A DNA stretch of 64,000 nt from positions 5,472,001 through 5,536,000 of the forward strand of contig CBDCJO010000002.1 of NCBI GenBank assembly GCA_965217865.1, in the 5' to 3' direction. Shown here in pieces: positions 35,341-61,556 of this stretch (position 1 is its first letter; each line of letters starts with the position of its first letter). A program made the position numbers and the translations under genes. The notes under the pieces are model-generated. The model saw only the letters and a list, made by a program, of their open reading frames with translations, searched no databases and was not told the DNA's origin. The stretch comes from Candidatus Latescibacterota bacterium. GTDB taxonomy: Bacteria; Latescibacterota; UBA2968; SICM01.

Positions 35341-36850
35341 TTGGTTTTTTTTATCCTTGCTCAGACTCTATTCATATGGAGCACCAGGTATAATTTGTAC
35401 ATCAAATCCCTTCTTACTTCTGACATAGCTATTGATTGCAATATGCTGTGGAATACCAATTTTACAGACCAAATCCTTTACACTGATATCTTTTATTTCA
35501 GATACGGTTTCAAAACATTTTTAAACGAACATTTCCATCTGACTTTTCTCCTCCTTGTCCCAATTTATCACCTTTTCCCATCGCCGTTAACTCTCATCGT
35601 TATTCAGACCTTGATGCCGGGACTAACTTCAATTTTTATTTATAAATTTTGTATACGGGTTTTTAACAAAAAGGAAAACTCTCAACCAAGTACGGTTTCT
35701 CATCCATCGCCAAATAATCAATACAACAGAAATGGCAGGGAAGGGGGTTCACTTCAGAAAGGAGGTTTCCTCCACTTCTTCGGATTTGCCCATAAGCAAC
35801 TGATATCACTTATGATATCAGTTGCTTACCTCTTCCTCTACTGCGGCTGGCAACATTGGACAGTGTATATGGTTTTCATATTGATTGCCTGATTCCGCCA
35901 TTGGTTGTATTAGTTGCTCTCTTTCTGTTTGAAAGAAAAATCGGTGCCTTTATTGCATTCCTATTGATGTTATTAGGCGTGAAGGAAAACATTCCTATCA
36001 TTGGATCATTGCTGGGTCTTGGGTTAATTATTCTCAATAAACCTTACTATAGGAAAATGGGATCGATCACACTCATTCTATCGGTTTTTATTCTCTTTAT
36101 CGGGCTGATTCTCCTTCCGTACTTTACTGGTATGTGGAATAGGAATAGTGAATTAATAACTCAATTATCGTCGCCGGGGAACGTTATTCAATAATATTGA
36201 TGTGACGATTCATTGGGGGAAAATGTTTATGTTCTTCCCATCGATCTTTGCTCCGGAGATTCTCGCTCTGGCTATTCCGGAACTGGTGATGTATACCATC
36301 GCCAGGAAGCCGCCATATGATTGGCATATTTACGCTACAATTTCCATTTTTGCTATTGCTTGCGTCATCGGTATGTCGAGGCTTCTTTTTTTAACAAAAG
36401 GTAAACCATCATGGTTTTGGAAATCGCCTAAATCGAAAACAACACTATTCATAATATCACTTTTAGCTCTAACAGCTAACCCCCTTGTGAACTTTTACCA
36501 TTCATACAACATCTGGAAAGTCGAAGATTATCACATTCAAGAAGTTAATCTAGAAGCGCTTCGCCAGGTCAAATCTTATGTCCCTCCAAACAGTTATCTT
36601 GCAGTAACTTCTGATTTAATGATTCACTTTGTTAATCGGTCTCATCTACTTGGGCCCGAGGAATATCATCACGCGGATTATATAATGGTCAATGTGAGGA
36701 CTAAAGGAATACATTATAGACATGAAGTATGATCTTAGACTCATAAGAGAAGTACGCGAGTTGGTGAAAACGAATGTGGTTGACTTTATTGTTTCAGCCG
36801 ATGATGGCTACTTTAAACTGTATCTATTTAAGAAAATCAAGAAATAGCAA
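35341..36850 (+). pseudogene. Low-GC DUF2079-like membrane glycosyltransferase remnant, fragmented
   Basis: Pieces with EHFH..LL.P.Y..FPSP.TL..IQ, GFH, LL.VKE motifs in different frames. Confidence 0.6.
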
Positions 36851-41300: not shown

Positions 41301-42828
41301 TCAGCCCGTTGAAGAACTACCTTTCAACGCACATAGACGGAAAAGACGCCTGGAGTGCGGGTCAGATAAATCAAGGTAAGGAGATTGAGCAGGAGACGCT
41401 GATAAGAGGTTAAAAAGGTGACCGAGGGCAGCAAACGTGATTGTAGGACGAGCAGTAGACGCTGCAAGGCCTTGGCCAGGTCCTGGAGGGCCTTCGGAGT
41501 ACCTACGCCCATCACTTTGCGCATGAGCAGAGCCAGGTTGCAGCCCCCGATGTGGATCAGCAAACGCTTGAGGATATTGCCGCGGTCTCTCAAGTGCAAC
41601 CTGCGCATGCCACCGGTATCATATGTGTGAGCGATGGTTCTTTCCACCCGTTCTGCACGACTTCGGCGCAAGGCCTTGCCGCGATCTCCCTTGATCCGGC
41701 GTCGATTCGCATATACCGCGGCCTGCTCATCTCGTCGGCCGTTCCACTTGCGGCGTCCCCGATCCGGTTCTGAAATGTAACTCCGGATGCCGCCTTGCTT
41801 CAGACTGGTCAATACATCGTTGCTATGATATCCTTTGTCCGCAACCACCTCCCGTATACGCTGTCTGTGCAAACGTTTGGCAGCTTTTTCGTCCTTCGCG
41901 ACCTGCTTGAGATTGAGCGGCGCCTCGAGCAGCGTCCAGGGCAACGACTCGGTATCTCCTTCATCTGCTCCCGACAACGCCACTGCCACAATGGCATTGG
42001 TGTCCAGATCCACCGCGTGCTCCACCTTGTGCGCCATGTGCGTGCGACCGTCCTTCATCTTAGCGATCTTGGCATCCGGGTCGTGCGGGTGCTCCCAGTC
42101 CTGGTTCGATCCCTTCTTCGGTCGCTTCTTATCGATCTTGGACAAGTCCTCGCGGGTAGGCGTTTCAATGCCCGAGGCCTTGGCCAGATTCTCAAGGAAT
42201 GCCTGGTAGCCTTCACCCGTGTCACGGCGTACAATGCTGCGCATCGCGGCGTTGGCCTCCAGTGTCGTAGCATCCACGCCCAACGTCTTCCCCTTCACCA
42301 GACCCGCTTTGCACAAGACCCTCAGGATCCACTTGAAAACCGCTTCGTGAACTTCCAAGGGAAGCCGATGCCGGATGCGAGACAGGCTGGAATGATCCGG
42401 GGTCTGTTCGTCAAGGGCATACCCCAAAAACCGGCGCAACGTCAGCGAGTCAGATACACGCCATTCGATCCCACGTTCCGAATCAAGTCCCTCGAAATAC
42501 CCAATCAAAAGCATCCGAAAATAAACCCCGGGCGGAATGCCCTTGCGACCCATATGAGGAGCGTAATACCGCTGGCAAAGCCCCTCGACGAACTCGTCGA
42601 AGCCGTTCGCCCCCAATACCTGATTCAGCTTCTCGTAGAACGGATGACCCGGAGATTTCACCAAAGTGTTCGATGCGATGAACAGGTTTTCCTGTCTCTG
42701 TCGTCCTCGTTTTCCCATTGCCATTTGCTCGTCCTCCCTTCTCAGTTTGAACCTGATATATCATAGGACCAAACCACAAGGAAAGACAACAGTCATCTTG
42801 GCATAAACGCACTTTTTCAACAGGCTGA
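41301..42828 (-). mobile_element. IS1182/IS5-like insertion sequence
   Basis: IRs TCAGCCCGTTGAAGA / TCAGCCTGTTGAAAA (rc); TA flanks both ends. Confidence 0.85.
41324..42724 (-). CDS. DDE transposase (DUF772 + DDE_Tnp_1-like)
   Basis: SERGI, PDHSSLSR.R, VDATTLEANA, ADKGY, VER. Confidence 0.92.
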   Translation of the reverse strand: MAMGKRGRQRQENLFIASNTLVKSPGHPFYEKLNQVLGANGFDEFVEGLCQRYYAPHMGRKGIPPGVYFRMLLIGYFEGLDSERGIEWRVSDSLTLRRFLGYALDEQTPDHSSLSRIRHRLPLEVHEAVFKWILRVLCKAGLVKGKTLGVDATTLEANAAMRSIVRRDTGEGYQAFLENLAKASGIETPTREDLSKIDKKRPKKGSNQDWEHPHDPDAKIAKMKDGRTHMAHKVEHAVDLDTNAIVAVALSGADEGDTESLPWTLLEAPLNLKQVAKDEKAAKRLHRQRIREVVADKGYHSNDVLTSLKQGGIRSYISEPDRGRRKWNGRRDEQAAVYANRRRIKGDRGKALRRSRAERVERTIAHTYDTGGMRRLHLRDRGNILKRLLIHIGGCNLALLMRKVMGVGTPKALQDLAKALQRLLLVLQSRLLPSVTFLTSYQRLLLNLLTLIYLTRTPGVFSVYVR

Positions 42829-52095: not shown

Positions 52096-53033
52096 TTATG
52101 GTATAAATTTTGTTCTTTCATTTACCTTAAGCACAAATGCCGCTATCAGCCGCGCAGTTTGTTCTAAGTCTTTGAGTGACAGCAATTCAACGGGTGTGTG
52201 CATATAACGCAATGGAACACTCACAAGTCCGGTTGCGACTCCTGCTCGCGCCAGCTGCATTTCGTGGGCATCAGTACCGGTTGCTCCAGCTGCCGCTTCG
52301 AACTGATAGGGGATCTTCGCTCGTTTCGCTGTTGAGACAAGAAGATCCAGTACTACAGGGTTCACGTTTGCACCACGTGTCAGCACAGGTCCCTTACCTA
52401 TTTCCATGCTGCCGGATTGGCGGGGATCAACGCCGGGATGGTCTGTAGCCCAGGTCACGTCCACCGCTATCCCGACAGAGGGATCTACGCCAAAAGTGCT
52501 CGTTCGCGCACCTCGGATGCCGATCTCCTCTTGAACGGTAGCCACTGAAAAAAGCGCGGCTTTATCGGATCGCCAATGGCCACGAGGGACAAGGCATCCT
52601 TACGCGACTTGGCCCCGATGTCAATCCATAATTCGTGAATCTCATGAACTTTTCTCCTCTCAGAACCAGTCATTAAGTGGATGGGCTTTTTCCCGATTAC
52701 ACCCAGGATGGTCCCTTTCGAGTTTAGAATTCGGACCTTCCGGCCGGGGATTGGTCCGGGATCGAATCCCCCGATCGTTTGAAAGTATATAAATCCATTG
52801 TCATCAACGTGTACGATTTGGAATCCCAGTTCATCACAGTGGCCAGCAAGCATAATCCTTGGATTACCCTTTGGGTTCAAGGATGCAATGACATTGCCGT
52901 GCAGGTCTTCCCTGACTAAGTCCGCATATTTGGACACCTCTGTTCGGAAGACCTTACGAATGGCCTGTTCGAAACCGGATGGGCTTGGGGTCTCCAAAAG
53001 ACGTTTTAGAAATTCCAGCGATGTTCGGCGCAT
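52096..53033 (-). pseudogene. M42 aminopeptidase with internal deletion/frameshift
   Basis: AGHCDE...IGDPI joins out of frame to KAALFSVATVQEEIG; the D-D/N-R metal-ligand segment is missing. Confidence 0.85.
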
Positions 53034-54215: not shown

Positions 54216-55310
54216 CTAAAAGACTCTTCCGAACATGCCAGCAAACAGGAAAAAGTCTTCTAAACCGACGAACCCATCCCGATCCGTGTTGATCCGGGAC
54301 ACCGACCCGAAATATTGATGAATTCCTACAGCAGGATAGCCCAGGTCCAGGAATGCCTGATGGTCTGAACAGTTGCATCCTTCCCGGGTTCCGGTCGAAA
54401 TCAGCTCGAAAGGCCCCGTTCCTGCTCGGTTTCTCGGAACCAGATCCGTATAGTCGTGAGCCGCCTGAGCGATCTCCTCTGCCAAATCCAAAGAGCGGCT
54501 AGAGGTATCGATCGTGAATGCAGTCGGGAACTCTGCCGATCGGGTTCCAATTGCATCCACGTTAAGCACTGCCGAGATGTCATCGACTCGCTCTCGGATT
54601 AGTTCCGCATAACTTCGGCTCCCCCATAGGCCCAACTCCTCCCCATCGAAAAGGACGAAGACAACTGACAGATCCAAATCGGTAATAAAGAGCAACCGGG
54701 CAATCTCCAATACAACGGCCGTTCCGGTCGCGTTGTCGTCCGCCCCCGGGGCATAGGTGGTGTCAGGCTGGGTAACCGAACCCGGGTTACTCAAATTGAT
54801 CGAATCGTAATGTGCTCCCAACAACACAAACTTCTCCGGACGAAGGACACCGGGTTTAATGACTGCGACATTTCGCCCTTCGACCCCGTCCAGGATAAAC
54901 CGACGTCCCAGAAGGGTACGATCGAGGCTGATGGTAAACGGTTCGAACCGGACTTCCGGATAACCCGCGTTGAGGAGTCGGGCGCTGATCCAGTCCCCGG
55001 CGGACCGGTTGGAATTCGTTCCGACAAAACGGGTTCGAAACCCCACCAACCGCTCCCCGACCGCTCGAATACTATCCTCAAGGATTCCTTCGACCAAGCT
55101 CTGAATATCCGGATCGGGGGCGGCATGTGCGGGAGAAGAAAACGTGACCATCCAAACAAAGACGATCGTCCATCCGGTTGAGGAACAGCGTGATCCCTGA
55201 GCAGTCTCATGATTCTTCGGATGGGAATCGGAAAAAAATGCGCAGGGTAGAAGACCCTGCGCCTGTTCCCAAAACTTTGGAAGGATGTCAGACCGACGCT
55301 CTGATTTCAT
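54216..55310 (-). CDS. M28 peptidase, probably internally deleted before an EF-hand/dockerin-like tail
   Basis: GAHYDS, PGADDNATG, GEELGLWGS, SDH; ends abruptly in DRDGFVGLEDFFLFAGMFG. Confidence 0.75.
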   Translation of the reverse strand: MKSERRSDILPKFWEQAQGLLPCAFFSDSHPKNHETAQGSRCSSTGWTIVFVWMVTFSSPAHAAPDPDIQSLVEGILEDSIRAVGERLVGFRTRFVGTNSNRSAGDWISARLLNAGYPEVRFEPFTISLDRTLLGRRFILDGVEGRNVAVIKPGVLRPEKFVLLGAHYDSINLSNPGSVTQPDTTYAPGADDNATGTAVVLEIARLLFITDLDLSVVFVLFDGEELGLWGSRSYAELIRERVDDISAVLNVDAIGTRSAEFPTAFTIDTSSRSLDLAEEIAQAAHDYTDLVPRNRAGTGPFELISTGTREGCNCSDHQAFLDLGYPAVGIHQYFGSVSRINTDRDGFVGLEDFFLFAGMFGRVF

Positions 55311-55412
55311 GTAAATCGGTGCCGAGCCTCATTGCTGCGCTGGTGATAGGGTCGGGTCGCCTCTGGTTGGCCGCCTCCCTTCGGATCAACTATCGTGCGG
55401 ATCCCTAGGGAT

Positions 55413-55550
55413 CTATTCGCTGCTCTTTATAGTCGTCGTGGTTTTTGTCCCTGCTTTCCGACCTTCCTGAACTCGGGCTTTGATCGCCTCCTTGCGACGT
55501 TTCCGTTTTCGGCGAAGTTCCCGGCTCCGTTCCGTTCCACGTCCTGACAA
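55413..55550 (-). CDS. Small basic protein, 45 aa (not in the ORF track)
   Basis: AGGAGG RBS + TTG; MSGRGTERSRELRRKRKRRKEAIKARVQEGRKAGTKTTTTIKSSE. Confidence 0.6.
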   Translation of the reverse strand: MSGRGTERSRELRRKRKRRKEAIKARVQEGRKAGTKTTTTIKSSE

Positions 55551-55819: not shown

Positions 55820-56965
55820 TTATTGGAGGAGCGTCAGGGCATTCTGAGGTAGCGCGTTCGCCTGAGCCAGGAGTGCGGTGCCCGCATTTGTCAGGATTTG
55901 GCTCCGGGTGAATTCGGAGACCTCCTCGGCAACATCCGTGTCTCGAATGGTCGATTCCGAAGCCTGAAGGTTTTCAAATGCGATGTTGTTGCGGGCGATC
56001 GTGAAGCCCAATCGGCTTTGCTGGATCCCGAGTTCCCCGCGCACCTCCGTGACGGTATCGATCGCCAGATCCAGGGATGAAAGGGCGGATCGGGCGCTGG
56101 ATTGGGAGTTGATCGAAATCACGCCAAGGTTGAGCTTTGCCCCTGTGGCCCTCATGTCTTCAATCGTGACGCTGATTCGATCCGTCGAGGCGGCGCTCCC
56201 ACCCACCTGGATGTCACCACCGGTCCCTGCGGAGATCAGCAGGGTGGTATTGTCTAGGTCTCCGTCCGAATAGGTATCGTTAAGGGTGATGGACAGCCCG
56301 AGCCGATCGAAGTTGACAAGGGCGGTTGTCCCGGTGGCAACCTGGTTGCCGTCGAGGACCGTACCGATATTGACTGTCTGAGTAATCGTACCGTTGCCGA
56401 TCGTGACCTGGCTATCTGTGGTGCCAGAGTCGACGAAAGTATAAGTCCCTGACTGCGCCCCGGACAGGATGACCTGCGTCAGGCCGGTGTTGGCGGAGAT
56501 CAGCGACGTCGAAACCGAGGTATCTCGACTGACCGTGTTTCCGAATCCGGTCAGGAGAGTACTTCCATTGTAAGTCGTCGAATTCGCGATCCGATCGATC
56601 TCCGAGACAAGCTGGATCACTTCTGAGTTTAACGACAACCGATTCGTGTCGTTCAGTGTGGATGAGGCCCCCTGCATGGCAAGTTCCCGCATCCGGAGGA
56701 GCATTGCACTGACCTCGTTGAGGGCGCCTTCCGCTGTCTGGATCAGGTTGGTACCCTGTTCGGCGTTCTTCGTCCCAACAGATAGGCCAATCAATTCCGC
56801 GCGCATCCCCTCGGAGACACTCAAACCTGAAGGATCGTCCGCGGATTTATTGATTTTTAGCCCTGAAGAGAGTCTCTCCAATCGCTTGCCCAGGTCCTGG
56901 CTGTTGATACCCAGGTGCCTTCGGCCGTTGAGGGAGATAATATTATGATTGACGCGTAGTGGCAT
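55820..56965 (-). CDS. fliC: Flagellin
   Basis: ERLSSGLKIN.SADD, QTAEGAL.E, S.IRDTD.A.E, QAN..PQ..L.LL; start ATG 56965 after AAGGAGGT. Confidence 0.93.
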   Translation of the reverse strand: MPLRVNHNIISLNGRRHLGINSQDLGKRLERLSSGLKINKSADDPSGLSVSEGMRAELIGLSVGTKNAEQGTNLIQTAEGALNEVSAMLLRMRELAMQGASSTLNDTNRLSLNSEVIQLVSEIDRIANSTTYNGSTLLTGFGNTVSRDTSVSTSLISANTGLTQVILSGAQSGTYTFVDSGTTDSQVTIGNGTITQTVNIGTVLDGNQVATGTTALVNFDRLGLSITLNDTYSDGDLDNTTLLISAGTGGDIQVGGSAASTDRISVTIEDMRATGAKLNLGVISINSQSSARSALSSLDLAIDTVTEVRGELGIQQSRLGFTIARNNIAFENLQASESTIRDTDVAEEVSEFTRSQILTNAGTALLAQANALPQNALTLLQ

Positions 56966-56994
56966 TTTAAACCTCCTTGTCGCAACCCGCTCGT

Positions 56995-57059
56995 TAGCTT
57001 CCGTGCTTGATGTTACCAATTGGTATTTAGTAGTATCTGTATTATCGTTCGATCCTTTA
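56995..57059 (-). promoter_or_regulatory. Putative sigma28 promoter and CsrA-type hairpin
   Basis: TAAA-N15-ACAGATAC; AGC-ACGGAA-GCT hairpin in the leader. Confidence 0.5.
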
Positions 57060-57529
57060 ACCAATTTTATGCGGATTTTGTTCTCAAATATAATTTTAGC
57101 CTTTCCATCCTCAATAAAATCAAGTTCAAGTTCTTTACTTCGAATATTTTTTACCTATACTTATCTACAGCGAAGGCCCGCTTTGAGCCGACTTCATTCC
57201 CCTTGACTAATTCAATCCCCCCCGGTATTTTCCTGGGGGCCCACAGAATTAGAGTCTTACATTATAGCTTCTACGCAAGATGGGTACATCTTTTTGATTG
57301 CGGCTCAGCGGATAGGCTCTCCCCTCGGCCGCCCCCCGTCAATAGAATGCCCGCTCCTGGGCCGAAGACACCCGCAATAGCACCCGGTGGTGGCTCCAAC
57401 CCAATTGTGAATACGTATTCACAATTCCAAACGGGCGGTACATTCGAAGCGCCTCATACATCTTTTTGTTTGCGGCTGAGTGGAAGCGAAGCGCAAGAGG
57501 CTTTTAAAAATTAATCGGAGCTCTTCTCC

Positions 57530-58198
57530 TTGAACACGGAAATCCATCCAAAAAGAGTATTAATCCTCGACGACCAGCCGGTGGTTCTCGAACAGCTCGA
57601 TCGCTGTCTTCGGAATCACAACTTCGAACCGATCCCGACCACCAGCTGGACCACAGCAATCGACCTGGTGACTCACAATACCCCCGATCTTGCCATCCTG
57701 GACTTACAGATGCCGACAATTCAGGGGAATTCGGTTTTAGACCTGATCCGGCAGGATGGACATTCCTTTCCCATTATTGTGATGTCTGCCTATCTAAACG
57801 AAGAGAAAATGGATGAACTCCGGCTCCTCGGTGCAAATGACTTTTTATCCAAACCTTTTCATCTTAACGACTTAGTGAACACGGTCCAGAGGCTTCTTGG
57901 ACAACCCCCCGTACCTGAATCCCCTCAAGAATCCGAGGAATCGGAAAGCTCTCCGAAAGAGGCCACAGCAATATTACCTGAAGAACTCGCCGATTCTGCA
58001 GTTCAAGAGACACAAGAAGACGACCCTCCCAAATATCCGAGGAAGCAGCGGATACACAAGCGGGAACTCCTGACTTATGCAAGAATAGCCTTGATCTGCC
58101 TGTTCGGGGCGTTCATCATCATCGTGATCAAAATGGGCTACACATCTGAAGACTTCGTCTCACAGGTGAAACAATTTCTTTTCGCAATTAGAATCTAA
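57530..58198 (+). CDS. Response regulator receiver + acidic linker + C-terminal TM; last codons supplied by the IS
   Basis: ILDD, DLQMP, KPF; hydrophobic segment near the C-terminus. Confidence 0.8.
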   Translation: MNTEIHPKRVLILDDQPVVLEQLDRCLRNHNFEPIPTTSWTTAIDLVTHNTPDLAILDLQMPTIQGNSVLDLIRQDGHSFPIIVMSAYLNEEKMDELRLLGANDFLSKPFHLNDLVNTVQRLLGQPPVPESPQESEESESSPKEATAILPEELADSAVQETQEDDPPKYPRKQRIHKRELLTYARIALICLFGAFIIIVIKMGYTSEDFVSQVKQFLFAIRI

Positions 58199-58279
58199 GG
58201 GCTTGACTTTTACCCTCTTTTCGGTTATATTAAGTGTAGTGAAAACAACCAACTTAACCAAAAAAGAGGAGGAAGGAAA

Positions 58280-59164
58280 ATGAACTTGTTGACGGCGATT
58301 GAAAGGTTCCCTACTCAGGAATCATGCATTGATCACCTTGAGCGGGTGAGATTCGGAGATGATCCGTTTTGTCCGCTCTGCGGTGTCGTTGGTGACGTTG
58401 CCCGCAAGAAGGACCGTAACCGCGTTGGACGCTGGAACTGTCATGCCTGCGGGTCCAGCTTCAATGTTCTTTCAGGGACAATATTTCAGAAAACGTACCT
58501 GCCGCTTCAGAAGTGGTTTATGGCAATCGCCTTGATCGTGAACGCCAAGAAGAGCCTGTCCAGTTGTCAGCTTGCCCGGGACCTGAACCTTACCCAGCGG
58601 TCGGCATGGTATATGCAACAGCGGATTCGTGCCGAGATGGCGACAAGGAATGGTAGAGTGCTCTTGCGAGGAATCATCGAGGCAGATGAGACCTACGTAG
58701 GAGGCAAGCCACGGAAGCGTAACAAGCGGTCAGGAGGCGGCGGCAACGCTCCCAGGGGGCGCGGAACCCGCAAGACTCCGGTTATAGGGGCAGTGGAGCG
58801 TGGCGGGAAGGTGGTTGCCCGTGTGGCGGACGATCTATCTGGCAAGGGAGTTCTGGCCTTCGTCAAGCAGGCGATAGACCCCGAAGGGTCGATGCTTGTC
58901 ACGGATGAATACAGTGCTTATAATACCGTAAGGCAAATCATGAGTCACGCTGTGATCCACCATGCCAGGCATTATGCGGACGGTGACATACACACGAATA
59001 CGATTGAAGGCGTGTGGTCTCTGCTCAAGCGTGCCTGGTACGGTTCCCATCATCACTACACGAAGCGTTACACGCCGTTCTATGTGGCTGAGGCGTGTTA
59101 CAAATACAACAACCGGAAGAACAAGCGGACGTTTGACACGTTCATGAAGGGGTGCTTCGCGTAG
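58280..59164 (+). CDS. IS1595-family (ISXO2-like) transposase
   Basis: CPLCG/CHACG Zn ribbon, EADETYVGG, TDEY, HTNTIEGVWSLLKR. Confidence 0.93.
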   Translation: MNLLTAIERFPTQESCIDHLERVRFGDDPFCPLCGVVGDVARKKDRNRVGRWNCHACGSSFNVLSGTIFQKTYLPLQKWFMAIALIVNAKKSLSSCQLARDLNLTQRSAWYMQQRIRAEMATRNGRVLLRGIIEADETYVGGKPRKRNKRSGGGGNAPRGRGTRKTPVIGAVERGGKVVARVADDLSGKGVLAFVKQAIDPEGSMLVTDEYSAYNTVRQIMSHAVIHHARHYADGDIHTNTIEGVWSLLKRAWYGSHHHYTKRYTPFYVAEACYKYNNRKNKRTFDTFMKGCFA

Positions 59165-59165
59165 A

Positions 59166-59696
59166 GTGTTTCTTAATATGGAGGTCGCAGAAATGAAGCC
59201 AATGACTCAACTTATTAATAGAATTGAAGAGAAAGACAAACTGTTCTTCAGCTTGTCGGACACACTTGACGTCAAAGCAAGCGTTTCGTTGATTCTGATC
59301 ACGTTTCTGTCCACACAAACCGCTTATTTTCTTAACCTTGACACTGCACACGTAGTTGTATCATCTGCCCAAACTCTCTCTGCAATAGCCCTTAGTGTGG
59401 GCGGAATTCTGGCACTGATTATTCTCTGGCCACGTTGCCATGAGACCGAAAGCATAGAGAAATGGGATCCCTGGTATCAAGAACTAAAAAAGTATTTTGA
59501 GGGCAAACCGGAAGCCGATCAAAAAGCTGATGAACTGTTTGAACGTGAAAGGTTCAATGGTCTGAAGAAACAAATAAAACACAACCGCTCCATCGTTGGC
59601 CAGAAGGCATGTCTTGCCACGTGGTGCTATGGATGCATAGCACTCTCTGTTTTATTAAATCTCGCGTGCCTTCTCTTACACAACACACTTCGCTAA
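59166..59696 (+). CDS. 3-TM membrane protein, Pycsar-effector (DUF5706)-like architecture
   Basis: LDVKAS-TM-TM-WPR-soluble loop-N..I...K-TM. Confidence 0.6.
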   Translation: MFLNMEVAEMKPMTQLINRIEEKDKLFFSLSDTLDVKASVSLILITFLSTQTAYFLNLDTAHVVVSSAQTLSAIALSVGGILALIILWPRCHETESIEKWDPWYQELKKYFEGKPEADQKADELFERERFNGLKKQIKHNRSIVGQKACLATWCYGCIALSVLLNLACLLLHNTLR

Positions 59697-59800
59697 CCGC
59701 CTTTAGTGACTCGTTCTGGCTGGGGCGGAGGAGGCGGTGGTGGCGGTGGTGGCGGTGGTGGCGGTGTCTGTTTTTGGTCGTTGTTTTTTTCGTCTGCCAT
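59693..59800 (-). CDS. 35-aa poly-proline peptide (not in the ORF track)
   Basis: AAAGGAG 7 nt before ATG; MADEKNNDQKQT-P14-QPERVTKGG. Confidence 0.65.
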   Translation of the reverse strand: MADEKNNDQKQTPPPPPPPPPPPPPPQPERVTKGG

Positions 59801-59818
59801 TTGAATTCTCCTTTCGAT

Positions 59819-61042
59819 TTACAGGATACCATCCGCCTTCAATTTGGAGATCAGATGTTCCTGTGTGTTGGATCCCTTGACGCTGTTGCAGGCTCCGCAT
59901 AGCAGTTGCAGGTTGTCCAGATGATCGGTTCCTCCTTTGCTCTTGGGCGTGACATGATCCACCACGAAGTTTCTGAAGTGAAATGTTGAACGGCACCCTT
60001 TGCACATTCCTTCCTGCTTGCCGAACAGGACATGCCTATGTGTACGGTAGTTGGGAAGCTTGCCTACGTCCGTTCGTTTTGGAACGTCGGTTCGCTTGAC
60101 GGGCGTGAAGTCGCTGAACAGGTCGAGTTGCCGGATGCGGACCTGAACAAGATCAACCGCTTTCTCCGATATGTCTATACCCACCCATTGGCGGTGCAGC
60201 TTTTCGGCAGCAACGCAGGCGGTGGCGCAGCCCGCGAATGGGTCCAGGACAATATCTCCCTCCTGGCTCGACGCTTTAACGATTCGCTCCAAGAGGGCAA
60301 GGGGTTTCTGGGTAGGATAGCCGACACGTTCGCGTTGATTGGTCAGCTTTGGAATACCGACCCACCAGTCTTCCGGCACCTTGCCAACCCCAAGCATGGT
60401 TTCAACGTCGGCCCTGCTCCGCTTTTCGTTCGTGAACCAGCTGTCATCTGCGCGTCCTTTCCGGGCGAGCGTTTCAGGATGATACGGTACGCGCACGGCA
60501 TCACGGTAAAACGACGCAGTCGTTTTGCGGCAGTACCACAAAACCGTGTCATGCTTGCGTGGAAACCATCGAGGTGTATTGCTCGCACCTGTATAGCACC
60601 ATACAATTTCGTTCCTGAAATTGGATTTTCCGAACACAGCATCCATGAGCAGCTTCAGGTAATGGCTGGCCGTGGGGTCGCAATGCAGGTACAGACTTCC
60701 GGTTGTCTTGAGCAACCGCTTCATTTCGAGCAGCCTTACGGCTATCATGATCAAATACGATTTCATGCCTTTCCCGTGCGCCAAGCCTGATGCGTCAATG
60801 ATCGAATATAGGGCCGGTTGCTTGTCTGCGATCTCTCCGTGCCATGCTTCGTCCACGTCCGAAAGCGTCCACGTGTCTTTGAATGCAGCCCCGGCCGCCT
60901 CGCTCCCCACGGGTGCGGCATAGTTCCGCTTGCTATTGAAAGGAGGATCGAGGTAGATCAGGTCTACGCTCCCGGAGTTCATACCACGCATGATGTCCAG
61001 GTTGTCACCCGTCCACATCGTGCGGTTCTTAAAGTTGGGCAT
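59819..61042 (-). CDS. N6/N4 DNA methyltransferase (beta class) fused to an HNH endonuclease
   Basis: DPPF, YPTQKP, DPFAGCAT; C-terminal CKGC...DHVTPKSKGG...NLQLLCGACN..K. Confidence 0.9.
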   Translation of the reverse strand: MPNFKNRTMWTGDNLDIMRGMNSGSVDLIYLDPPFNSKRNYAAPVGSEAAGAAFKDTWTLSDVDEAWHGEIADKQPALYSIIDASGLAHGKGMKSYLIMIAVRLLEMKRLLKTTGSLYLHCDPTASHYLKLLMDAVFGKSNFRNEIVWCYTGASNTPRWFPRKHDTVLWYCRKTTASFYRDAVRVPYHPETLARKGRADDSWFTNEKRSRADVETMLGVGKVPEDWWVGIPKLTNQRERVGYPTQKPLALLERIVKASSQEGDIVLDPFAGCATACVAAEKLHRQWVGIDISEKAVDLVQVRIRQLDLFSDFTPVKRTDVPKRTDVGKLPNYRTHRHVLFGKQEGMCKGCRSTFHFRNFVVDHVTPKSKGGTDHLDNLQLLCGACNSVKGSNTQEHLISKLKADGIL

Positions 61043-61218
61043 GGCGTGAATTTACTCATTCCGGCTTGGAAAGTCAAGCCCATGAGGTCTAATTGCGTTT
61101 CTTTTTAAGGGGGCTTTTAATCGGTAACCTTTGATGTGTACCGGGTGAAAAAAAACCGGCACTCCCCGATCGGTATCGTGGTGCCTGGTAATCAAATGAT
61201 TTGAAAGTCTCTTCCGAT

Positions 61219-61556
61219 TCAACTCCGGGATTTGCAATTATCCCGGAGTTCCCCGTTCAACCAGTTAAAATACCCCTCGCTTCCCTCAACAACCGGCGTT
61301 GCTAAAATCTCAGGTTCTTCATAGGGATGAGCCCTTCGGATAAACTGCTCAAGTTCCTCATAGAGATCCAGCCTGCTCTTAGTGACACAAACCCATTCAT
61401 CCTCGACCTCCAACTTCCCTTTCACCGGAAAGTGCTCGTGATGGGTTTGTATACCTGGACGCAACCGGCCAGTCTTTCTTCCACGACCGATCTGGCAATT
61501 ATTTGTGCTTCTTCTTTTTTTCCTACCGTGGTCATCACCTGGATAAATTCTCCCAT
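61219..61556 (-). pseudogene. cutA: CutA with a 1-nt deletion
   Basis: LAGCVQ...ITSTFR then TGA where TGG is expected; continues KGKLE...HPYEEPEI in the shifted frame. Confidence 0.85.

Follow-up and report, generated by a model that had tools for sequence, protein, structure and literature searches.

The 64,000-nt window analyzed here, from the genome of a Candidatus Latescibacterota bacterium (contig CBDCJO010000002.1, positions 5,472,001 to 5,536,000), contains at positions 58183-61097 an intact 2915-bp insertion sequence (IS) of the IS1595 family with three passenger genes. We read it as an active cargo transposon that carries two independent modules, one being a one-protein restriction-modification enzyme, in which a DNA methyltransferase is fused to an HNH nuclease, and the other a membrane effector restrained by a small proline-rich peptide; we assign this reading as a whole a probability of about 0.5.

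The element ends in two 28-bp inverted repeats (IRs; 58183-58210 on the + strand and 61070-61097 on the − strand) whose arms are 82% complementary, and the 8-bp target duplication TTTCTTTT flanks it at 58175-58182 and 61098-61105. A second copy in the same genome (G000:C2:4039344-4042258) is identical at 2915 of 2915 positions and is bounded by a different perfect duplication, AAATTAAA; the passenger genes thus travel with the element, which moves as a unit and makes 8-bp duplications. Furthermore, the exact empty site was present in two of four runs (X8 and X9, from different studies), in which contigs of 1468 and 1244 nt join position 58174 to position 61098, retaining a single copy of the duplication and skipping 2923 bases (2915 + 8). 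Among the four closer runs, the filled left junction was seen in X1, X2 and X5, and an empty joint, with a short side of only 22 letters, in X3. Since some runs have the empty joint and others the filled junction, the insertion is recent and polymorphic. The 41 whole genomes compared (this one and 40 relatives) gave no flank match close enough to reveal an empty site, and no circle junction was listed in the contigs of eight runs, although contigs cannot show absence. An earlier, sequence-only reading of the window had taken the IRs and the duplication around a transposase and three passengers as a recently inserted unit, mobile as a whole and with all four genes intact, and had proposed a search for copies, cargo variants and empty sites. 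All four frames are indeed open, and the identical copy, sister elements and the empty site were all found.

The transposase (58280-59164, + strand, 294 aa) is an IS1595-family DDE enzyme with a zinc ribbon and the residues D136, D209 and E243; it scores 181.6 bits against NF033547 (cut-off 75) and also matches PF12762 and PF12760. The same genome holds ten more transposase copies of 89-92% identity with related ends and other cargo: two carry another methylase-HNH fusion and a 96-aa gene of no assigned kind, and three an HNH remnant and two small genes; the remaining cargo includes a stop-broken methylase-HNH gene with a membrane gene of a second family and a peptide, an HsdR-N protein, and a methylase whose C-terminal domain is of another kind. 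IS1595 elements further removed carry Panacea antitoxins or a DUF5678-aspartyl-protease pair. Sequence is common to the sisters as far as the transposase stop and as far as a point just past the HNH stop and diverges beyond each, and this comparison of sequences shows cargo exchange at two slots, right after either stop codon. In another genome, G103, a membrane gene and peptide of 82.6% nucleotide identity to those of the window (the membrane gene being 80% identical) lie within an IS1595 element that has a transposase of 31% identity and no methylase. Just upstream of this pair is a 24-nt remnant of the tail of the window's transposase, identical at 20 of 24 positions with four synonymous changes (the best of 500 shuffles reached 16/24), which points to transfer of the cassette between clades.

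Several further arrangements of this family were seen in the same genome. A 10-kb IS1595 nest within one pair of ends and a perfect duplication (L196, G000:C2:4583550-4593523) contains two methylase fusions, one of them interrupted by an IS3-type element. An 1804-bp sister element present in three copies (L193, G000:C2:1566616-1568419) contains, besides an HNH remnant, a gene of 108 aa that faces one for a Cys-rich peptide of 55 aa; the stops of these two overlap, making another convergent pair of small genes. There are also a 47-bp palindrome made of two fused IS ends (G000:C1:432502-432548) and an element that an internal deletion has shortened to 397 bp and that is flanked by a perfect 8-bp duplication (G000:C2:4210820-4211216). 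IS1595 elements with passengers are already known as transporter ISs, such as MTnSag1/tISSag10 and tISCpe8 (PMC5704250), and share with the present element the DDE transposase, IRs of about 25 bp, the 8-bp duplication and passenger genes. The cargo differs, being lincosamide resistance in tISCpe8 (PMC5704250) and a methylase-nuclease plus a membrane gene/peptide pair here, and so does the swapping of cargo at two slots among the sisters.

The distribution of the passenger genes makes it very probable that they form two separate modules. None of the 100 methylase loci examined has the membrane gene, and the HNH fusion was absent from all 37 membrane-gene loci. In 12 of the 80 best-scoring methylase loci (out of 553 in GTDB), from nine genomes, an IS1595 transposase lies within 500 bp of the fusion, and in one more it is 3.8 kb away, while 67 have none; IRs and 8-bp duplications bracket the fusion in seven of the 12 transposase-linked loci and in two of 20 further loci, and in L070 and L071 the transposase and the fusion are the sole contents. 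Without the methylase, the membrane gene/peptide pair occurs on IS1595 and IS1 elements and in prophage-like DNA: 13 of the 37 loci have an IS1595 or IS1 transposase and two an integrase, and five (L149-L152 and L154) are elements bounded by IRs and duplications with an IS1-type transposase. Small basic open reading frames (ORFs) without a Pfam family recur at the ends of such IS1/IS1595 cargo elements (L149:3943-4242, L154:4197-4487, L190:2959-3126 and L186:9461-9652). The sequence-only reading had joined the methylase-HNH protein and the membrane protein in one system, which neither their separate distribution nor the G103 pair supports. Its two convergent units hold as a description of the gene layout, but the conserved partnership, that of membrane gene and peptide, crosses both units. 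Its view of the cargo as defence- or addiction-like is supported, and its single-chain modification and cleavage enzyme is borne out by methylase and HNH domains in one chain.

The fusion gene (59819-61042, − strand) encodes 407 aa comprising a beta-class N6A/N4C methyltransferase (PF01555) and a C-terminal zinc-binding HNH nuclease (PF01844, PF14279). In the methylase, DPPF (residues 32-35) precedes the S-adenosylmethionine (SAM) motif PFxGC (267-274), with a variable recognition region at about residues 150-240 in between. Among the 103 top homologues, both motifs and C347, C350, D362, H363, N377, C382, C385 and N386 are invariant or nearly so, and identity to the query is 0.75-0.81 in the core, 0.65 in the HNH domain and 0.30 in the recognition region. 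Comparison with two sister copies gives the HNH domain dN/dS values of about 0.17 and 0.32, in line with purifying selection. The predicted model (mean predicted local distance difference test score, pLDDT, 81.9) matches the folds of the beta-class methylases M.BceJIV, M.RsrI and M1.MboII. All 8000 candidates scored matched the fusion, so the family has at least 8000 members; its GTDB loci span many phyla and one archaeon, with many titles naming taxa which we take to be sponge-associated. The matches include 18 viral loci, and no plasmid record covered 80% of the fusion. In related methylases an Mrr-like or GIY-YIG domain occupies the HNH slot, and at five loci (L058, L074, L109, L113 and L124) several methylase or methylase-HNH genes stand in tandem or close together. 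An RNA-guided role is not claimed, as the IscB/Cas9d matches cover the HNH domain only and fall far below the cut-off; a guide RNA was not searched for.

On this evidence the fusion is rather likely to be a single-chain restriction-modification enzyme, and probably a Type IIC-like one rather than Type IIG. Type IIC is defined by the presence of both activities in one protein, whereas the Type IIG label calls for a gamma-class methylase, and here DPPF comes before the SAM motif and the best matches are beta-class. The fusion resembles the Type IIC/IIG enzymes MmeI, BpuSI and BtgZI in having methylase and nuclease in one chain and a variable specificity region in a conserved frame (PMC4081073). 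The builds described in that review are an N-terminal PD-D/EXK nuclease with a gamma-class methylase and, in BtgZI, an alpha-class methylase with a C-terminal PD-D/EXK variant; the beta-class methylase with a C-terminal HNH domain in the window, known from its sequence, differs from both. No characterized beta-methylase-HNH fusion was found in the literature available to our search.

The membrane gene (59193-59696, + strand) encodes a 167-aa protein predicted to be a three-helix bundle (pLDDT 95.3) and a distant relative of PycTM, the membrane effector of Pycsar systems. The family average has three hydrophobic segments, the first of which is weaker in the window copy. PADLOC's PycTM profile matches the window protein weakly (E 3.2e-05), and Atlas assigns it at 0.95 to clusters in which PycTM labels 19-37% of members. 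The fold search gave no Foldseek match at E 0.001 and only generic helical bundles (best Z 12.5, rmsd, root-mean-square deviation, 5.6). The family forms 223 clusters at 50% identity; it was found in two of 168 genomes of its own phylum and three of 401 of another, one of the latter (L191) being a weak match without a peptide, and in none of the plasmids or viral contigs searched. Compared with G103, the membrane gene has dN 0.10 and dS 0.26, indicating purifying selection, and compared with its closest relative the window copy has a 7-nt insertion that alters the last few residues. The membrane protein of the sister element has the same topology and cannot be aligned with that of the window (family-profile E 0.087), and is therefore counted here as belonging to a second family; in six of its eight loci (of nine, one duplicate being left out) there is a convergent Pro-containing ORF, and three of the six adjoin an IS1595 transposase.

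The constant partner of the membrane gene is a convergent micropeptide gene. In the window it spans 59693-59800 on the − strand, starts 18 nt behind the HNH stop behind a GGAG ribosome-binding site, and its stop overlaps that of the membrane gene by 4 nt; the 35-aa product has an acidic start, a single Arg and 14 consecutive Pro residues and ends in VTKGG. As a rule for the peptide we required that its ORF be convergent, contain 20% or more Pro and carry K/R-G close to its end, and applied this to 33 loci, namely 31 of the 37 metagenome loci together with L186 and L190 (the six left out were three contig-end cuts, two truncated genes without a peptide, and one with a peptide that the script missed). 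The rule held at 27 of the 33, with overlapping ORFs of 29-52 aa ending in K-K/R-G, and the six misses comprise two peptides of 18% Pro ending in FKKGG, two contig-end cuts, one frameshifted gene, and one IEKGD ending beside a frameshifted partner. As background, only two of 6008 ORFs in the window's genome satisfied the rule, both of them from the window module (0 of 6006 others), and the 131 remaining ORFs of these soil loci gave none. All but one of the 24 distinct peptides have a K-K/R-G ending; conservation is limited to the last four to five residues, length and sequence otherwise varying freely, many soil peptides being rich in Pro, Arg and Gln, and many having a ribosome-binding site ahead of the ATG. 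Among the 30 peptides called by the script, 27 have an overlap of 17 nt, and the VTKGG ending with its 4-nt overlap in the window copy is best described as a slight drift from the family. No such peptide was present in seven control loci, of which six came from a search with PF18967 (the PycTM family) and one is a weak match to the membrane family; in one of the seven a cyclase-like ORF adjoins the PycTM gene.

The codons of the overlap show which frame is maintained. In the last two codons of the membrane gene, position 3 is T in 24 and 23 of 25 loci, respectively, compared with 26% over the gene body; position 2 alternates in such a way that the residues switch between Ser and Phe and between Pro and Leu. 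Since position 3 is fixed while position 2 changes, this is the pattern expected if the antisense Lys-Lys-Gly frame were held by selection, and the motif is retained across membrane partners of 25-38% identity. A single sister element has an intact peptide next to a membrane gene that another IS interrupts, one case in keeping with the membrane protein being the harmful partner. The transposase of that IS has the same length and score as a 466-aa DUF772 transposase in the window (41327-42724, − strand). At six loci of one soil clade (L160, L167, L168, L176, L180 and L189) the peptide gene lies directly behind a gene for Xaa-Pro aminopeptidase on the same strand, an adjacency that is notable given the Pro-rich peptide and probably reflects a single insertion event.

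The peptide is the only constant partner, and no cyclase was found either in the element or among 79 neighbouring ORFs from 26 loci (several contigs being short). We tentatively propose, at somewhat less than even odds, a membrane effector guarded by the peptide and serving addiction or abortive infection. A small and probably disordered peptide would be made continuously and bind the membrane protein via its C-terminal motif; should its supply cease, through phage shut-off of host expression or because the element is lost, oligomers of the membrane protein would form and damage the membrane. In the other module, the methylase would mark the site chosen by its variable region and the HNH domain would cut sites lacking the mark, thereby guarding against foreign DNA and penalizing loss of the element.

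These proposals can be set beside known systems. Type I toxin-antitoxin pairs combine a small hydrophobic peptide toxin with an RNA antitoxin, and some are convergent with a 3' overlap; in Type II pairs a protein antitoxin neutralizes the toxin by binding it directly. The window pair shares with Type I and II systems two small linked genes on mobile DNA, and with some Type I pairs the convergent overlap; it differs in that the genes form no operon, the peptide is hydrophilic and selected as a protein, and the membrane protein, at 167 aa, is no small hydrophobic peptide. In Pycsar, which consists of PycC and PycTM, PycTM disrupts the inner membrane (PMC13712596, PMC13069673), and the window protein is of similar size, has a DxKA motif and gives the weak profile and Atlas matches described above; it differs in having a convergent micropeptide instead of a cyclase. 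Panoptes illustrates that membrane effectors can be silenced by a constantly made inhibitor (PMC13712596). The likeness to Panoptes and Hailong lies in the proposed logic only, since their inhibitors are enzyme-made nucleotides or DNA and the candidate inhibitor here is a peptide; no inhibitor-making enzyme of that type was found in the element or among the neighbours. The literature that could be searched, with few subscription papers and no supplements (such as the candidate-operon tables of PMC13069673), contained no description of the fusion on IS1595 and none of a PycTM-like gene with a convergent peptide. With IS1595 passengers already known, the vehicle is an ordinary one; one cargo module may be a new class of system. 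It is possible, though we would put it at only about one chance in three, that the pair represents an undescribed two-gene class for defence or addiction, in which a peptide guards a Pycsar-type effector that has no cyclase. IS1595, IS1 and prophages would then spread it, and the IS1595 elements would be platforms on which cassettes are swapped and the pair is combined with beta-methylase-nuclease fusions whose specificity changes.

A number of observations weigh against these interpretations. For the fusion, the homologues compared were the top-scoring full-length matches, which inflates the invariance of the motifs; 68 of the 80 methylase loci have no adjacent IS1595 transposase, as judged with four query transposases; and broken copies are frequent (an internal stop, IS insertions and remnants in the window's genome, a frameshift in P0009, and decay in L115 and L116). 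For the pair, the window membrane protein has no Pfam match, PF18967 included, and the PycTM profile matches only eight of 109 family members; an ABC ATPase gene lies upstream of eleven soil loci that lack any mobile-element match, so that a housekeeping role also fits. For the peptide, the rule was derived from the same, mutually related loci, the window copy has Thr at the first Lys of the KKG motif, and the residue before KKG is tied to the stop codon of the membrane gene and is hence no evidence.

Other explanations of the same data were weighed. Polyproline stalling and arrest peptides are established, and the peptide ORF might act in cis rather than by binding, the convergent 3' overlap and ribosomes slowed at the polyproline and KKG-stop setting the stability of the membrane-gene mRNA and sensing translation stress. 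The near-constant 17-nt overlap and the confinement of conservation to the last residues would suit this, but other overlaps occur in the window copy and in the second membrane family (26-131 nt), and known arrest peptides lie upstream on the same strand; we consider it unlikely. Somewhat less likely again is a reversal of roles, in which a Pro/Arg-rich peptide would be the toxin, much as proline-rich antimicrobial peptides bind the ribosome, and the membrane protein would export or sequester it, or a variant in which the peptide would be an activating ligand replacing cyclic cytidine monophosphate (cCMP). The composition of many soil peptides favours it, and for the variant so does the activation of PycTM by a ligand in Pycsar (PMC13712596); however, the window peptide is acidic at its start with one Arg, length and sequence are free apart from KKG, and a toxic peptide is hardly compatible with the whole peptide beside the split membrane gene in the sister element. 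Marginally behind it comes the view that the methylase is solitary and that its nuclease only nicks or is seldom active; the protein would then serve the element itself, for example in transposition timing or protection from host restriction, with the membrane pair guarded or neutral. The closest solved structures are beta-class methylases, solitary CcrM included, copies lose the HNH domain or decay, and a single HNH site cuts one strand; yet the HNH catalytic residues are retained under purifying selection, three unrelated nuclease folds occupy the same slot, and Type IIC enzymes with a single catalytic site still cut both strands (PMC4081073).

The two remaining explanations concern the cargo as a whole. 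A single three-gene defence or addiction system of methylase-HNH, membrane protein and peptide would account for the presence of all three genes in two copies, for the sister element that pairs a methylase-HNH gene with a different membrane gene and peptide, and for the short distance between the HNH stop and the peptide on the same strand; it is very improbable given the lack of co-occurrence in the 100 methylase and 37 membrane-gene loci and the pair without a fusion in G103. We give even less credence to neutral DNA acquired by the transposon, as the frequent decay of cargo in the window's genome is offset by purifying selection on the methylase, the HNH domain and the membrane gene and by the retention of the peptide motif across divergent partners. 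Among these explanations we retain the two-module cargo, with a restriction-modification fusion and a peptide-restrained membrane effector.

The ends of the element also bear on its expression. Each IR contains the -35 box of an inward sigma-70-type promoter match, TTGACT-N17-TATATT at 58203-58231 (+ strand, 10 of 12 consensus positions) and TTGACT-N17-TAAATT at 61049-61077 (− strand, 9 of 12); the left -35 box is retained in the ends of sister elements. These are consensus matches only, and promoter-like sites numbered six against 2.8 expected. Accordingly oriented transcripts would place methylase and peptide on one strand and transposase and membrane gene on the other, the left match being predicted to drive the latter two. 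The right-hand -10 box ends 6 nt ahead of the methylase ATG and the methylase has no ribosome-binding site, which suggests a leaderless message. On the host side, the insertion interrupts the 3' end of a response-regulator gene (57530-58198, + strand), swapping its last six residues for four encoded by the IR.

The sequence-only reading had also described a window full of broken genes, and this is only partly borne out: three genes are split, and most of the 56 ORFs scanned look whole. The cutA gene (61219-61556, − strand) has a frameshift near 61422; since X8 and X9 have one extra base there while X1-X3 match the window, this is a real and recent loss. The genes for an M42 aminopeptidase (52099-53033, − strand) and a DUF2079 membrane protein (35341-36191, + strand) are each split into two ORFs. 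A lone flagellin gene (55820-57064, − strand) has upstream of it (57285-57484) two 28-nt direct repeats (89% alike, 172 bp apart) as well as a perfect 24-nt palindrome (57403-57426), and sequence related to that near 57300-57456 has deep coverage in other runs. An M28 peptidase gene (54216-55310, − strand) may be truncated, its last residues resembling the start of the context of the neighbouring 55395-55547 region.

The micropeptide is below the length that most gene callers accept. Many PycTM-like genes that seem to stand alone may thus have a partner that has gone unseen, and if the peptide does gate the effector, this would be a new way of controlling a membrane immune effector. The beta-methylase-HNH fusions, in turn, would extend the range of single-chain restriction enzymes by one architecture and offer new specificities.

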